A stretch of 64,000 bases of DNA from Escherichia coli (GTDB taxonomy: Bacteria; Pseudomonadota; Gammaproteobacteria; Enterobacterales; Enterobacteriaceae): NCBI RefSeq assembly GCF_050920415.1, contig NZ_CP169309.1. One strand, 5' to 3'. The notes under the pieces are model-generated. The model was given only the letters and a program-made list of their open reading frames with translations. It was not told where the DNA came from and did not search any database. The position numbers and the translations under genes are program-made. How positions within the stretch are numbered: position 1 is the stretch's first letter; each line of letters opens with the position of its first letter. Below are positions 5,141 to 45,216 of the stretch, piece after piece.

Positions 5141-6586
5141 TCAGGCGTTACCTGTAAAAAGTTTCCCGTCCCGCACCAGTTCACGCGGGTAGCTGTTTTT
5201 CAGTCGCGAACCAATCCGTTTGGCTAAACCAATCGGCTGATGCTGGAAAGTAACCAATACATCATCCGCTACTGGCGCGGCTTGCGGGTAAACATCGCGC
5301 CCGCGATACCATTCTTCCGCTTCCTGCGGTGTCAGTTCAAAAGCGTTCACATTGTCGGGGGAGGCAAGGGCAATAACCGCTTCATGCTGCCAGCGATAAC
5401 CTTTATTATGTGTTTCGGCAAGTTTAATCCCCAACCGAGAAAATCGGACTTTACCGATCAAGGCTTCAATGCCCACCGGGAACAACCACAGTTCTTTGTC
5501 GCGTTGCCAGAGTCGCAGGTTTCCATCCCAGTTTAAGCCAACACTTGCAGCCGCCTGACGAATTTGACCGGCTTCGCGATCTTTCACCGGGCTAAACGGA
5601 AAATTGCCCACTTTGTATTTTGGGGCGGGTAAGACGGGGATCGCCTGAGTTTTACGCAGACGAGCAACGAAGAAGCCTTCGCAGTCGTAAATTTGTGGGA
5701 AAACATGCAAAAAGCCTTCTTCGGTCAGCGCCTTATTTGCACCAGGGAAGAGATCGCCAAGCGGTAAAAACTCTACTGCGTCGGGGTAAGTCTCTTTCAG
5801 CCACCGGCAGACGGCTTCATTTTCTTCCTGGTTTAAGGTACAGGTCGAGTAAACCAGCGTACCGCCAAGGCGTAATGCATGAAAGGCGCTGTCGATCAGT
5901 TCCCGTTGGGTAGCTGCGATTTCCTGATTGCTTTCTGGTGACCAGTTTTTTAGCGCATCGGGATCTTTACGCACCACGCCTTCACCGGAGCAGGGAGCGT
6001 CCAGCAAAATGGCATCGAACATTTCTGGCACTGCCGCACCAAATACACGGCCATCAAAATGCGTGAGCGCAACATTACGGATGCCACAGCGGCTGATATT
6101 GGCATGTAACACTTTTACCCGACTGGCGGAAAACTCATTGGCAAGGATCGCCCCTTCGTTATTCATCCGCGCGGCAATTTGCGTCGTTTTGGAGCCGGGC
6201 GCGGCAGCGACATCCATCACCCGCTGTGGTGCATTACCGTCAGCAAACAAGGCGGCGACGGGCAACATTGAACTGGCTTCCTGAATATAAAACAGGCCAC
6301 TTAAATGCTCGGCGGTACTACCCAATGGCAAGGCATCTTCATCGTTGCGTTCAATCCAGAAACCTTCTTCACACCACGGAATTGGCGTAAGCGTCCAGCC
6401 ATAAGGGGCGGTTAATTGCAGGAAATCAGCAACGGAGATTTTCAGCGTATTAACGCGAATACTACGGCGCAACGGGCGCTGACAGGCGGCAAGAAAATCA
6501 TCAAATGAGAGCGTCGAAGGCATTGCTTCGCGCATTTGTGTCAGAAAGGCGTCCGGGAAATAAACGGTGTGTTGGGCCACGAGCAT
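5141..6586 (-). CDS. rsmF: 16S rRNA m5C1407 methyltransferase
   Basis: ORF 481 aa; SAM-dependent MTase with PUA-like C-terminus; K-12 annotation 479 aa may use GTG at codon 3. Confidence 0.9.
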
Positions 6587-6659
6587 GTACCACTGGCAAA
6601 AAAACAGGCGCGCAGTTTAGCATAAACGCTCCGGCGCAGGCACGCCGGAGCAGTGGGCA

Positions 6660-9293
6660 TTATTTGGGAAGCGCTGTTCCCCATTCACGCCACTCTTTCG
6701 GTTCACTTTCCTGCAACAGGAAGTGCTTGCCTTCCTGGGCTTTCGGTGCCAGCGGCGTACCCGGAGGCGTAGCGAAGGCGATGCCGCCACGGATAAACTG
6801 GTTAAAGGTGCCGGTTTTCACGACGCCGCCCGTCAGACCAAAGTCCAGACTGTAACCCGATGCCAACCAGAAGACGGAATTGTTACGCACCAGGTGTTGA
6901 TAGCGTTTACTGATGCGCATCGCAATCATCACGCGATCTGACAATGTCCCCAGCGTCATTCCGGTAACCGTACCGACTTCCAGACCACGGAACAGCACAG
7001 GCGTACCGATGCCTAACGAACCGGCTTCCGGCGCTTCAACAATAATGCTTAAGCCATCCAGGTAACGCGAATCAGTTATGGTGGCCTCTTGTAATTCAAA
7101 GTCGCGGCGAGGATTGCCCCGGCCTGGTTCGACGTTGATATACGGCTGGAGGATAGTATCAAGATGCTCAACGCCAGCTGCCGAAATTTGCGGTGTGACC
7201 ACTGAGAAGCGTGTACCACCGCGTGCAAAGGTCTGGACATATTCCGGATAGAGTACCGCCTTTGCCTGTACTTCATTGCGCGCGGTAATCAGATCCAGCG
7301 TCTGGATTTGCCCGATATCAATACCGAGATAGCGAATTGGCATCCCGACCGCCAGTTTTCCGGCATCGAAAGCGTGAAGCGTAATTTGCCCGCCAACCGC
7401 ACGGGCCGCTGTTTCGGAAGCATACAGAATACGCTTGTCGCCTTTACGCTGACTGGCGCTGGCACCGCTGAGGTTATCGAAGCTAATAGCTCCCTTTAAT
7501 GCTCTGGAGAGCGGGGATGCCTGTACAGTCAGACCACTACCATTTAGCTGAACTTTCGCCCCACCTTCTGCCCAGAACACGCTGTTGCTGGTCAGAAGGT
7601 TGCGATACTCCGGCTTAATATGCAGATCGATATCAAACGCGTTAGCTCGCGGACGCACAGTAATAACTTCACCAACTTCAAATTTACGGTACAGTACTAC
7701 CGATCCTGCCTGCACATCTGGCAATGTCTCTGCACTCAAACTCACGGTTGTGGTGGGCAAATCGCTAAGGCTGTTCTCCAGTGCTTTTTCCAGATTGGCA
7801 TACAGTGGATAGCTGGCTTTCATCTCGCCTTTATCGCCTGGCAGAATACGTATCCCGCCGTTAATCCATTCTGAGGCGCTGGCACCGAGAAATTCAACGC
7901 CATCCAGCCCCACCTTCACGTCGACACGGCTGTTGACGACAAATTTGCTATCGCCTTTTACCAGTTCGCGATGCTGAGGCTCGATGGCGACGGTAAAGGT
8001 GACGCCTTTGCTGGTGAGTTTACGATCAATAACCTGGCCTACCTGCACGCCGTGAAGAATGAGCGGCTGACCAGCATCAATGCCGTAACTTTCTGGTGCT
8101 GTCAGGGTCAGCGTCAGAACATCTGGCTCATGGAGTAGGGCTTTTTCGCCAGGAACAACAATAAACTCTTTACGTGGCTCACCGTCGCCCGGCACCAACT
8201 CGAAGGTTTTGCCGGTCAGCAAGGCACTGAGATTAGCATCGCTAAGGGATAATTTTGGATTACGTAATTCGATGCGGGTATTTTCCCGTAACAGCGTGAC
8301 GACGCTGGGATCAACGGTCATTTCCCCAGTGACTTTACCACCAGGATTTAAATCCAGTTTAGTCAGCTGTCCGACTTCCAGCCCCTGATACATTAACGGC
8401 GTCGAGTCGGCGGTTAATCCGGCCCCACTCGGCAGTTCCAGTTTTATTATTACGCCACGCTGGCTGTGGGCGAGATCTTCATACAGACCAAAGGTATCTT
8501 CCGCCTCGGCAGGTTTCGACTCTTCAGGTGAATCGAAGGCAATCGCACCGTTAACCAGTGCCGCCAGACTTTCCAGTTTCACCTTCGCGCCACTGATACT
8601 GACGTTGGCATCAACGCCGGAAACGTTCCAGAAACGGCTACCTTTTTTCACCAGATCGGTAAAACGCCGCTCGATCAGGACATCAATCACCACGCCTTGC
8701 TTATTGGGATTGATGGCATAGTCGTAGACTTTACCCACCGGGATCTTACGGAAATATACCAATGAACCACTGTTCAGTGAACCGAGATCGGGGGCTTGCA
8801 GGTGGATCATCAGATCGCCATTATCCAGCCGATACTTCGGTTGGGTATCGAGTGCGACAAAGTGATCCTGCTCTTTACCTTTACCCGGCATCATGCCGAT
8901 ATAGTTACCCCCGACGAGGGCGTCCAGCCCGGAGACACCTGCCAACGAGGCTTTTGGCGTCACCAGCCAGAACTGTGTCTCCTCGCGCAGCGCATCTTTC
9001 ATATCGGACTTGATGCTGACTTTGACTTCAATCTTACGAAGATCGTCGCTCAGGCTGATATCCTGCACTGTTCCGACCTCAACGCCCTGATAACGAACAG
9101 GTGTGCGGCCCGGGACGATACCGTCCGCCGACATAAAGTCGATGGTGACGGTATTACCCCGATCCTGATAACTGTCCCAAATCAGCCAACCGGCAATCAT
9201 AAGCGCGATGAACGGCAGCAGCCAGAAAGGTGAGATACGGCGTTTATTTTTAATCTGCGCTTCAGTCGTCGAAGCGGGCGTTTCCTGACTCAT
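6660..9293 (-). CDS. letB: lipophilic envelope-spanning tunnel protein LetB (multi-MCE domain)
   Basis: ORF 6660..9335; start at MSQETPAST... gives 877 aa; N-terminal TM helix then repeated MCE domains. Confidence 0.9.
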
Positions 9294-41012: not shown

Positions 41013-42137
41013 TTAGTCCTTAAACACCTGCGCCAGCAGATTATGGAAATGGGCGATACCGTGTTCGGAAATTCCGCTACCGCTACTGTCGGCCATGATG
41101 CGCCCCTGACCACGATAGCCACGCGATTTCAGCCCTTTCTGTACGCTTTCAACCAGACGTAAATCTTCCGGACGGAACACGTCGCGATACCACTCAATCA
41201 GTGATTTTTGCTCGTCGGTTAACTCTTCATTGGTGAAGTAAATATCGTAGTTTTGCAGGGTAGTTTCAGAATCCACCGGGAATTCATAAATGACCGTCAT
41301 CATCCCTTTGATAGGCGTAACGTTCAGCATTGTGCACGGCCACAGCCAGAAACCGTGGAATGCCGCATCCGTACCCTCTTCAAATTTGAAAGACTGTTCG
41401 GACGGTTTGGCGAAACCGTATTGCAGCGTCCAGTTACCGTGCATGGTGTGCCAGTAACGATCAACCTGAACGGAGTCGGAGAAACCTGGATGCACCGGAC
41501 CACAGTGATAGCACTCGAGATAGTTATCGACAATGTTCTTCCAGTTGGCAGGCGTGCGGGTGGTAAAACGGGCCGCCAGTTTCAGGTCATGGACTTCCGG
41601 GCAGGCTTCCAGCACTTTCTCTCCCAGACCGGGTAACTGATCTTCTACGCTGGTGGCGTTGGGGTCCATGTTGATGAAGACGAATCCGGCATATTCTTCC
41701 AGACGCACCGGAACCAGTTGCGCTTTGTCACTATCGAAATTGGCGACGTTTTCGCAGTTACGCGCATGGGCCAGGTTGCCATCGAGTTTGAATGCCCAGG
41801 CGTGATACGGACAGGTAATTACATTTTTCGCTTTCCCTTCGCCGCTCAATAACTGATGACCACGGTGTGGACAAACGTTATAGAACGCGCGCAAAACCTT
41901 ATCACGACCGCGTACCAGCACGATGCTTTCACCAATGATCTCACGGGTCACGTAATCATTGGCATTCGCCAGTTCGCTGCTGTGAGCGACACAAATCCAG
42001 CTTTTGGCGAAGACGTTCTCTTTTTCGTGTTCAAAGGCATTCTGATCAGTATAAAAACGGGCAGGAATGGTCCACGCCTCTTGCGGGTTAGCGCAAAAAT
42101 TTTCGGGTAGTACAAAGTCAGGGCTCAGATTGCTCAT
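41013..42137 (-). CDS. yeaW: carnitine monooxygenase oxygenase subunit (Rieske)
   Basis: ORF 41013..42257; start at MSNLSPDFVLPENF... gives 374 aa; Rieske motif CPHRGH...CPYHAW. Confidence 0.9.
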   Translation of the reverse strand: MSNLSPDFVLPENFCANPQEAWTIPARFYTDQNAFEHEKENVFAKSWICVAHSSELANANDYVTREIIGESIVLVRGRDKVLRAFYNVCPHRGHQLLSGEGKAKNVITCPYHAWAFKLDGNLAHARNCENVANFDSDKAQLVPVRLEEYAGFVFINMDPNATSVEDQLPGLGEKVLEACPEVHDLKLAARFTTRTPANWKNIVDNYLECYHCGPVHPGFSDSVQVDRYWHTMHGNWTLQYGFAKPSEQSFKFEEGTDAAFHGFWLWPCTMLNVTPIKGMMTVIYEFPVDSETTLQNYDIYFTNEELTDEQKSLIEWYRDVFRPEDLRLVESVQKGLKSRGYRGQGRIMADSSGSGISEHGIAHFHNLLAQVFKD

Positions 42138-42168
42138 AGGGATACCTTTATCGTTAGGATGATGGCGT

Positions 42169-43779
42169 TCAGTTGTCGCCTTTGAATACGGTTCCAGCAG
42201 GAAGCACTGGCGCTTTTCCCGGGGCTTCAACCGGTGTCTGCGGGAGATAATGTTCAACTTGATGAGCTGGAATGTCGGCGTAATCCTGTTTCAGCCAGCG
42301 AATAAATCCGCCGACTTTCACCAGTAAAATGGCGAGGAAGGGAAGGGCAGTGAGGACGACGGTAGTTTTCATTGTTTCCAGCGAAGCACCGGTAAACAAG
42401 ATGGAAAGCGGGATCAGAGTGATCACTACGCACCAGAACAGACGCAGCCCACGGTCAGGATCGTCACCTTCCTGGAGATTACGCGTGCTGGTCGCCGCCA
42501 TGGTGTAAGCCACCGCATCCATATGCGAGGCGAGGAAGATAATCATCACGCCCAGGTATGCGGCGAGGAACAATTTACCGGCTGGCAACGACATCAGAAC
42601 TTGCTGCACAGCTGTTTCGCCGCCCAGTGTTTCCAGCACCTGTGGGACGTTGATTACGCCATTGATAAACTGATGAATGGCATAGCTTTCCATTACACCG
42701 AAGAAGAACCAGCAACCGACAGTGCTGCCGAGGATCAGTCCCCAGATAACTTCTTTAATCTTTCGACCGCGCGAAACGCGGGTGACAAACATTGCTACGC
42801 CAGGGGTGTATGAGATCCACCACAGCCAGTAGAAAACGGTCCAGTTGCGGGTAAATGAACCATCGCCAAGCGGATCGGTGAATAAGCTCATTTGCAGGAA
42901 GTTTTGCGTGGTCAGGCCGATGGCATTGATGATGCTGTTGGTAATAAATTCGGTTGGACCGACAATCAGCACCAGTAATGGCAGCAGGAATGCGCCCCAG
43001 CCAACCATTTTGCTTAGACGTTGCAAACCGTTGTTGATACCAATCCACGAGCTTAGGCAAAAAATGCCGCCGGAAAGCAGGATCACAAATGCCTGTACGG
43101 TAAAGTTATCGGGTAAACCGGTCAGCGCGGAAAGCCCACGGGTAAAGGTTGCTGCGGTGACAACAAGGGAAATGGTCAGTGCGCCGACAGTGGCGATCAG
43201 GAACATCAAATCGACCAGTTTCCCCCACGGGCCTTGCGGGCGAACGCCGGTAATAGCAGCAATAATGCCGGAAAGGCTCAGCCCTTTATTTTTCCGCACA
43301 TGAAAGTGATAAGCCATGATTAATGAGGCCAGCGTATAAGTTGCCCAGGCGCTGATGCCCCAGTGGAAGAAGGAGTAGGGAACGCTAAATTCGAGTGCCT
43401 GTTGTGAACGCGGTGCGATATTTAATCCAGGCGTTTGATAATAATAGGCCCATTCAGCAACCCCCCAATAAAGCGTAGAAGAACCTAAACCTGCACAAAT
43501 AAACATAAACAGCCAGGAGAGCGTGCTGTATTCCGGTTTTCCTTCGCCAAGACGAATATTGCCGTATTTACTGGTGGCTAAATAAATCACCAGTCCCATT
43601 GCCAGCAAAACCAATACCTGTACGGCGGAACCTAACGTACGCGTGACAAAAGTGTATATAGCGTTTGCCGCGTCGGCCGATTGTTGTGGGAAAAGGCTTA
43701 ATGCAGCTGCGATGAAAAGAATGGCCACCAGGCTGATGCTTATCAACGGCACATCTTTTTTCTTAACATTGCTCATCAT
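42169..43779 (-). CDS. yeaV: BCCT-family transporter
   Basis: ORF 536 aa with AGGAG RBS 7 nt upstream of ATG at 43779; K-12 annotation as recalled is shorter, so start uncertain. Confidence 0.85.
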
Positions 43780-43982
43780 GAGTCATCTCCTGGGCATAAA
43801 AGCCCGCCTCTGGCTTTTGCCAGTTGTAATTATTTGCAGGGTATGAGTTGTATGTTGTGTTTAACAAATTGATTATTTACATGTTACATAAATTAAACAA
43901 TTAAGAATACGGAAAGCCATAAAACACGAAACGGAAACAATAAAAGGTGAAATGACGCAGGTTATTTACTGCAAAGAACGAA

Positions 43983-44010
43983 TAAAAAAACCGCGTCAGT
44001 GACGCGGTTC
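43983..44010 (-). terminator. intrinsic terminator after dmlA
   Basis: minus-strand hairpin ACCGCGTC-ACT-GACGCGGT followed by TTTTTTT. Confidence 0.8.
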
Positions 44011-44028
44011 AAATAAACTGGTTTGACC

Positions 44029-45114
44029 TTAACGCAAAATAATTTTGCAAATCGCGTCGGCAACCTGTGGCGTGGTGGCATTGCCTTTCATATCAGGTGT
44101 TTTCGGCCCGTGAGCAATCACTTCTTCAATCGCGGCCAGAATACCGTTATGCGCTTGCTGGAAACGCTCATCGCCATTGCCGAGAAAATCGAGCATCATT
44201 GCACCGGCCCAAATCGTGGCGATAGGGTTAGCAATATTTTTCCCGTAGATATCCGGCGCGGAACCGTGGACTGGCTCGAAGAGCGACGGGAAAGTGCGTT
44301 CCGGATTCAGGTTGGCGGATGGGGCAATGCCAATGGTGCCGGTGCAGGCCGGGCCAAGATCGGAAAGGATATCGCCAAACAAATTGGACGCCACTACCAC
44401 ATCGAAGCGTTCCGGCTGCATCACAAAACGTGCGCAGAGAATGTCAATATGCTGCTTGTCCCAGCGGATCTCCGGGTAATTCTCAGCCATTGCTTCCACT
44501 CGCTCATCCCAATACGGCATGCTGATGGCTAAACCGTTCGATTTAGTGGCAGAAGTTAGCGTCTTACGTGGGCGGCTTTGCGCAAGTTCAAAGGCATAGC
44601 GCAAAATACGATCGACACCACGACGAGTAAATACCGATTCCTGAATGACGACTTCATGCTCTGTACCTTCATTCACTCTACCGCCGAGCGAGGAATATTC
44701 GCCTTCGGTGTTTTCCCTGACCACGTAAAAATCGATGTCGCCAGGCTGTTTTCCCGCCAGCGGGCAGGGAACGCCAGGAAAGAGACGAACCGGGCGCAGG
44801 TTGACGTACTGGTCGAACTCACGACGAAATTTCAGCAGCGAACCCCACAACGAAATATGGTCCGGAACGGTATCCGGCCAGCCGGCGGCACCAAAATAGA
44901 TGGCGTCGAAACGGCTAAGTTGCTCATGCCAGTCGTCCGGCATCATTTTACCGTGATGGCTGTAATACTCGCAGCTCGCCCACTCCATTTGCTCAAAACT
45001 CAAGGCGAAGCCCCAGCGCTCAGCGGCAGCCTGTAACACGCGAATCCCTTCAGGAAGGACTTCTTTGCCAATCCCGTCTCCCGGGATCGCAGCAATACGC
45101 ATCGTTTTCATCAT
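44029..45114 (-). CDS. dmlA: D-malate dehydrogenase (decarboxylating)
   Basis: ORF 361 aa MMKTMRIAAIPGDGIGKEV...; isocitrate/isopropylmalate dehydrogenase family. Confidence 0.9.
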   Translation of the reverse strand: MMKTMRIAAIPGDGIGKEVLPEGIRVLQAAAERWGFALSFEQMEWASCEYYSHHGKMMPDDWHEQLSRFDAIYFGAAGWPDTVPDHISLWGSLLKFRREFDQYVNLRPVRLFPGVPCPLAGKQPGDIDFYVVRENTEGEYSSLGGRVNEGTEHEVVIQESVFTRRGVDRILRYAFELAQSRPRKTLTSATKSNGLAISMPYWDERVEAMAENYPEIRWDKQHIDILCARFVMQPERFDVVVASNLFGDILSDLGPACTGTIGIAPSANLNPERTFPSLFEPVHGSAPDIYGKNIANPIATIWAGAMMLDFLGNGDERFQQAHNGILAAIEEVIAHGPKTPDMKGNATTPQVADAICKIILR

Positions 45115-45216
45115 TGGGTTCTCACTTCCTGACCATCAAAATTGACAACCTCACCATCCTATAATTGACTGAAAAGGAATTAATCCCCGCAACTGGTGAA
45201 ACATAAAACACGAATC

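Follow-up and report, generated by a model that had tools for sequence, protein, structure and literature searches.

The 64,000-nt stretch of Escherichia coli DNA analysed here (hereafter the window) carries an intact, ancestral yeaV gene that starts at the ATG at position 43779, and the 481-aa form annotated in K-12 is the product of a 224-bp deletion, a reading to which we give a probability of about 0.93. An earlier note on this DNA had described the start of yeaV as ambiguous. This description does not hold, as the two annotations correspond to two alleles, the K-12 one being devoid of both the ATG and its Shine-Dalgarno sequence; for the window, the yeaV start is an ordinary annotation matter and no biological ambiguity is involved. 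In the intact allele, translation from ATG 43779 would be served by the AGGAG located 7 nt upstream and would yield a 536-aa BCCT transporter of 12 helices. With the deletion, K-12 lost a portion of the DNA upstream of the gene together with the ribosome-binding site, the start codon, and the sequence for TM1 and for the first part of TM2, and early K-12 annotation picked the first start-like codon, a TTG, in the truncated frame. We consider the gene model for the window settled, with a yeaV of 536 aa, its start at 43779 and twelve predicted transmembrane helices. The features of the region are collected in Table 1.

Table 1. Features of yeaV and its surroundings in the window (position 1 is the first nucleotide of the 64,000-nt stretch).
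Feature	Position	Strand	Remarks
yeaW, carnitine monooxygenase oxygenase subunit	41013..42137	-	Begins 31 nt past the yeaV stop codon
yeaV CDS, full-length BCCT-family transporter	42169..43779	-	536 aa; ORF list, Pfam, NCBIfam and RefSeq
Codon 56 TTG, internal Leu predicted in mid-TM2	43612..43614	-	Start codon in the K-12 reference annotation
Codons 1-55 (the extension)	43615..43779	-	Predicted TM1 (7-29) and first half of the TM2 helix (31-69)
Segment kept here, deleted in K-12 and BL21	43652..43875	-	224 bp; window/K-12 alignment
Second ATG (codon 2)	43776..43774	-	Directly after the first ATG
Start codon ATG	43777..43779	-	First start codon past the in-frame TGA; conserved across genera
Shine-Dalgarno AGGAG	43787..43791	-	7 nt 5' of the ATG; duplex -7.4 kcal/mol
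Weak sigma-70-like candidate	43872..43900	-	TTGTTT 43900..43895, 17 nt, AATAAT 43877..43872; putative, chosen by eye
13-mer TTCGTGTTTTATG, candidate shared operator	43918..43930	-	~140 nt 5' of the yeaV start codon; putative
dmlA terminator-like hairpin and T-run	43988..44010	-	Intrinsic type; parts dmlA from the yeaV upstream region
dmlA, D-malate dehydrogenase (decarboxylating)	44029..45114	-	Upstream neighbour of yeaV

Translation start of the intact gene

The longest minus-strand ORF runs from 43779 to 42169, comprises 536 codons and opens with ATG-ATG, and the RefSeq annotation of an identical gene is a 1611-nt CDS (WP_000987522.1). An in-frame TGA is found at 43785..43783, upstream of the yeaV ATG, and therefore no longer yeaV ORF is possible. 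The earlier note had placed the start of a 536-aa ORF at ATG 43779 behind a strong AGGAG, and the coordinates, the spacing and the duplex energy agree with it, the strength of a Shine-Dalgarno sequence being taken as its best duplex energy with the 3' end of the 16S rRNA. It had also mentioned a K-12 annotation about 55 residues shorter, which would correspond to a TTG near 43614 with a poor ribosome-binding site. Both statements proved correct: the protein has 481 aa in NC_000913.3, a difference of exactly 55, and the TTG is codon 56, for which the best Shine-Dalgarno-like duplex reaches -3.8 kcal/mol at a spacing of 0 nt, which is poor. In-frame start-like codons inside yeaV include TTG, TTG and ATG, at codons 56, 58 and 61 respectively, the last one located at 43599 on the minus strand.

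The DNA alignment with Klebsiella and Citrobacter/Salmonella shows conservation of both the ATG and the GGAG block, and the start block reads CC(A/G)GGAGAT(G/C)AC(T/C)CATG across genera. This comparison also bears on the choice between the two adjacent ATG codons. Translation from the second one (43776) would give a protein of 535 aa, and it adjoins the first ATG at a workable distance of 10 nt from the AGGAG; nevertheless, we consider its use unlikely, as it is the first ATG that is conserved and codon 2 is TTG (Leu) in those other genera vs ATG in the window. Moreover, the 7-nt spacing of the first ATG is closer to the optimum, RefSeq takes the first ATG, and the NCBIfam model NF007412 matches from position 1. 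By conservation and spacing, the first ATG is the preferred candidate, and we infer that ATG 43779 is the codon used in vivo.

Orthologs of full length (532-548 aa), whose N-termini align with that of the window protein, were found in 13 genera: Klebsiella, Enterobacter ([Enterobacter] lignolyticus), Citrobacter/Salmonella, Shimwellia, Serratia, Yersinia, Xenorhabdus, Crenobacter, Pseudomonas, Aeromonas, Cupriavidus, Achromobacter and Helicobacter (Helicobacter aurati). A full-length query was required for this search, the first 81 residues returning fragments only. Among these orthologs, M1, D9, L12, P31, A38, T46, G50 and Q54 are near-invariant in the N-terminal part. Within E. coli, codons 1-55 show 4 synonymous and no non-synonymous differences, and between genera their dN/dS is 0.13-0.18 at a dS of about 1, while that of the core is lower (0.03-0.085). 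These values indicate that codons 1-55 are under purifying selection, weaker than that acting on the core, and that the extension is not a chance open frame.

Family membership and predicted topology

The window protein matches the Pfam BCCT model (PF02028) with 405 bits (cutoff 27), residues 14-499 aligning with positions 3-485 of 485, and the NCBIfam YeaV equivalog NF007412 with 1028 bits against a cutoff of 647. Like full-length YeaV (WP_000987522.1 / WP_000987525.1), it has 536 aa and matches NF007412 from end to end (1-536 of 536). The K-12 form covers positions 46-485 only of the Pfam model and 56-536 of NF007412. Residues 312-321 agree with W-T-x-x-Y-W-x-W-W, the Trp-rich TM8 signature of the BCCT family, and W313, T314, Y317, W318, W320 and W321 are invariant in the ortholog alignment.

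AlphaFold2, with the alignment of orthologs as input (mean pLDDT 75, pTM 0.77), predicted helices at residues 7-29, 31-69, 86-115, 132-161, 184-220, 226-246, 249-273, 276-292 (amphipathic), 308-335, 341-372, 401-431, 443-463 and 467-498, a model that agrees with the twelve transmembrane helices expected of the family. The Kyte-Doolittle hydropathy maxima are found at residues ~20 and ~59. The peak at residue ~20 and the predicted helix 7-29 are in line with the earlier remark that the longer form adds a hydrophobic segment, and helix 31-69 places codon 56 in the middle of TM2. Of the 12 TM helices of BCCT transporters, TM3-7 and TM8-12 make up the core of inverted repeats, and TM2 takes part in the contacts within the trimer at the periplasmic face (PMC11323884). 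According to the model, the K-12 product would be devoid of TM1 and of the periplasmic half of TM2, and would keep the core.

An alignment with the N-termini of CaiT and BetT had been proposed in the earlier note as a check of the start, and it supports the long form, as the extension is colinear with the structures of DddT, CaiT, BetT and BetP. Window YeaV aligns with DddT (21fh; E=6.5e-100, query 16-498), with CaiT (2wsx/3hfx; E=1.2e-69, query 26-502), and with BetT (9vbn) and BetP (2wit), the N-terminus included. In contrast to BetP and BetT, which have long regulatory N- or C-terminal domains, YeaV has no such domains, and the substrates, where known, differ. By every sequence-based criterion tested, window YeaV is an ordinary BCCT-family protein.

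The topology is also relevant to a possible dual initiation, in which the internal TTG 43614 or ATG 43599 would be used in addition to ATG 43779 and give rise to a functional isoform of 481 or 476 aa. The in-frame codons 56, 58 and 61 could serve as starts, the 10-helix LeuT-like core (TM3-12) would stay (PMC11323884), and overexpression of K-12 yeaV altered metabolite uptake (PMC10971958). Yet TTG 43614 and ATG 43599 are both CTG in Klebsiella and Citrobacter/Salmonella, the Shine-Dalgarno sequence is weak and wrongly spaced, the model places the site halfway along a transmembrane helix, and no such isoform has been reported. We regard dual initiation as very improbable, and retain ATG 43779 as the start of the intact gene.

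Origin of the K-12 allele

The window was aligned with K-12 MG1655 and one further intact strain. It is not a K-12-type truncated allele, since the full 224-bp segment (43875..43652) is present. The segment deleted in K-12 comprises 96 nt of upstream DNA with the ribosome-binding site, the ATG, codons 1-42 and 2 nt of codon 43, so that the first 42.7 codons of yeaV are removed. At the junction, ...CATGCAAA is followed directly by TTTTGTTACG..., the position being ambiguous by 1 nt (T), and the microhomology amounts to 1 nt only. Regarding the mechanism, inspection of the window/K-12 alignment revealed no direct repeat that accounts for the deletion. A nearby TTTGTTA repeat was considered as its cause and discarded, as it does not match the K-12 junction.

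The opposite polarity, with the K-12 arrangement as the ancestral one and the window carrying a 224-bp insertion that fortuitously lengthens the ORF, would explain the length difference, and that alone. Against it, Klebsiella, Citrobacter/Salmonella and genera farther away also have the segment in conserved form, including the ATG, the Shine-Dalgarno sequence and the N-terminal residues, and the segment shows homology to TM1 and TM2 of BCCT proteins of solved structure. The outgroup comparison refutes the insertion, to which we attach practically no probability, and the deletion in K-12 is the reading followed below.

In K-12, an in-frame TAA is found 3 codons 5' of the junction, and no start-like codon comes between it and the TTG. 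The 481-aa annotation arose because the truncated frame offers no earlier start-like codon than this TTG: in NC_000913.3, yeaV (b1801) occupies 1883188..1884633 and starts at the equivalent of TTG 43614 of the window. The K-12 protein (NP_416315.1, 481 aa) is colinear with residues 56-536 of window YeaV and about 99% identical to it, but the codon annotated as its start encodes an internal Leu in the intact gene. PGAP describes yeaV of K-12 MG1655 (NZ_CP032667) and of BL21 as a pseudogene, 'incomplete; partial in the middle of a contig; missing N-terminus', and gives a 1611-nt CDS (536 aa) in MFDS1022581, 23CRST022, O157:H7 Sakai and SE11. The N-terminal incompleteness of the K-12 gene is thus known, being already encoded in the PGAP annotation; the curated K-12 reference continues to give the 481-aa protein. 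We found no description of the K-12 yeaV deletion in the literature.

We infer that yeaV of K-12 is either expressed at a low level or without function. A metabolomics study with a knockout and an overexpression of K-12 yeaV described changes in the uptake of several compounds, carnitine included, and makes no mention of the truncation (PMC10971958); the truncated protein may keep some activity when artificially driven. Functional claims on 'YeaV' obtained with K-12 material, as in that study, concern the truncated protein. In this sense, the K-12 reference and the resources derived from the K-12 gene (e.g. the Keio knockout) represent a yeaV copy without TM1, half of TM2 and the native translation signals.

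Distribution and age of the deletion

The yeaV locus is present in 4376 of 5426 complete E. coli genomes, and about 1050 of the 5426 are entirely without it. The 224-nt segment is retained in 2930/5426 genomes, and the exact K-12 junction 40-mer occurs in 1438/5426 (26.5%); for the latter, a 40-nt query was used in megablast, with a 28-nt word requirement that keeps intact alleles from matching. Approximately 8 locus-bearing genomes have neither the segment nor the junction. Other forms of the locus were also observed: strain 98233 has an IS1 insertion in yeaV, strain HS-02 has only 55% of the 224-nt segment left, and in strain BS-04 the flank-to-flank span is 312 nt vs 325 nt.

All K-12 and B laboratory strains examined (B via BL21) carry the deletion. 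A spread sample of the 1438 junction genomes includes K-12 and BL21 derivatives, but the majority are isolates from humans, pigs, dogs, cattle, poultry and water, and therefore the deletion is a polymorphism of natural populations rather than a product of laboratory culture. The occurrence of the same junction everywhere points to one deletion event. Over codons 56-536, the K-12 DNA is identical to that of the intact 23CRST022 allele, which indicates that the deletion is young relative to the allelic divergence. Over the same codons, K-12 and BL21 differ by 7 synonymous and no non-synonymous changes, a substitution pattern of the truncated copies that a young deletion with recombination fits as well as continued selection does.

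As for the allele of the window itself, its DNA is 100% identical to that of strain MFDS1022581, and the neighbourhood dmlR-dmlA-yeaV-yeaW-yeaX is the same as in the strains that carry the RefSeq full-length YeaV. It is a minority variant: at least 99% identity over the 2-kb query was found in only 15 of the 4376 records, the majority of which are ~97.4% identical to the window yeaV query. Its protein has the C-terminal substitutions A483V, P520L, G521E and A523T, absent from K-12, BL21, SE11, Sakai and 23CRST022.

Genomic context and carnitine degradation

The genes are ordered dmlR / dmlA - yeaV - yeaW - yeaX, with YeaW/YeaX being a carnitine monooxygenase. By position and homology, YeaV is likely the importer that feeds YeaW/YeaX. 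The evidence that it transports a quaternary ammonium or related compound is indirect and consists of this proximity to the carnitine monooxygenase genes and of the untargeted metabolomics with the truncated K-12 clone (PMC10971958). The annotated yeaW has 374 aa from ATG 42137 (MSNLSPDF...); the longest yeaW ORF (41013-42257, minus strand, 414 aa) opens with TTG 42257 and overlaps the 3' end of yeaV, and in this case the longest ORF is not the gene.

A related arrangement exists in Acinetobacter baumannii, where the BCCT carnitine transporter Aci01347 belongs to the operon carR-mdh-bcct-hyd-cntA-msadh-cntB. Common to A. baumannii and E. coli is a BCCT gene beside a carnitine monooxygenase, a D-malate dehydrogenase and a LysR regulator, and 56% identity has been reported between the two BCCT proteins (PMC11353897). 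The A. baumannii cluster converts carnitine to TMA and malic semialdehyde, the latter being transformed to D-malate and then to pyruvate, whereas the E. coli cluster is without hyd and msadh (PMC11353897). The lack of msadh in E. coli was remarked by Piskol et al. 2024. Between yeaW and yeaX, Klebsiella and Citrobacter/Salmonella have a gene for an aldehyde dehydrogenase of family PF00171 (locus positions 5788-7236 and 5787-7238, respectively), presumably the malic semialdehyde dehydrogenase; the yeaW-yeaX gap of E. coli measures only ~55 nt.

Regarding phenotypes, BL21, B and K12 did not grow on carnitine, and no carnitine monooxygenase activity was detected in BL21 extracts (PMC11353897). 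BL21 and K-12 carry the deletion, strain B being covered only through its derivative BL21, and SE11, listed as a producer of TMA from carnitine (PMC6200775), has an intact yeaV. The correlation between the deletion and the carnitine phenotype is suggestive; it comprises very few strains, and E. coli is also without msadh. The deletion would do severe damage to the transporter and, at the same time, to the leader of the yeaVWX operon. K-12 (DSM 10517) also appears as carnitine-positive in Jameson et al. 2018 (PMC6200775), citing Rath 2017; we do not take this entry as phenotypic evidence, because it traces only to K-12 DNA used as a qPCR standard.

In practice, it should be considered that yeaV is truncated in K-12 and B strains (B checked via BL21), and that the negative carnitine results of K-12, B and BL21 (PMC11353897) are not extendable to the ~2/3 of yeaV-bearing E. 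coli genomes in which the gene is intact.

Upstream region and candidate regulatory signals

Besides the copy of the 13-mer TTCGTGTTTTATG upstream of yeaV, a second one is found at 45202..45214 (minus strand), in the divergent control region of dmlR/dmlA and just before the dmlR ATG (45217). These are 2 exact matches in the 64-kb window vs 0.08 expected, an optimistic statistic given that the pattern was picked post hoc. Variants of the 13-mer occur at both equivalent places in Klebsiella (locus positions 1310-1322 and 2841-2853), and the block upstream of yeaV is conserved in the cross-genus alignment. The 13-mer is possibly a shared operator of DmlR (LysR-type, CarR-like) that would link dmlA and yeaVWX.

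Its presence upstream of both yeaV and dmlR/dmlA suggests a single DmlR-controlled regulon. We put forward, tentatively and with clearly less than even odds, that dmlR-dmlA-yeaVWX constitute one such regulon, that the deletion is partly behind the failure of BL21, B and K-12 to grow on carnitine and behind the missing monooxygenase activity of BL21 extracts, and that gut isolates with the intact gene would be the real TMA producers. Comparable to the CarR operon of Acinetobacter, this regulon would take carnitine to TMA and D-malate, and D-malate on to pyruvate.

A consensus scan upstream of yeaV gave no sigma-70 promoter at threshold. The weak candidate listed in Table 1 lies in a block conserved between genera, and its -10-like AATAAT is cut by the left edge of the K-12 deletion. 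An Rfam scan of 43600-44100 returned a single sub-threshold chance match, located over the dmlA terminator. Antisense to the 5' end of yeaV there is a 67-aa ORF with a GTG start (43643-43846, plus strand) that shows no sign of being a gene.

The fold of the 5' leader is not unusual (z = -1.85). Two hairpins precede the Shine-Dalgarno sequence on the minus strand, CTGGC-AAAA-GCCAG (43810-43823) and GGGC-TTTTAT-GCCC (43792-43805), and their conservation in other genera is unconvincing in the cross-genus alignment. On the plus strand, the hairpin at 43810-43823 also scores as terminator-like, and both hairpins are within the segment deleted in K-12.
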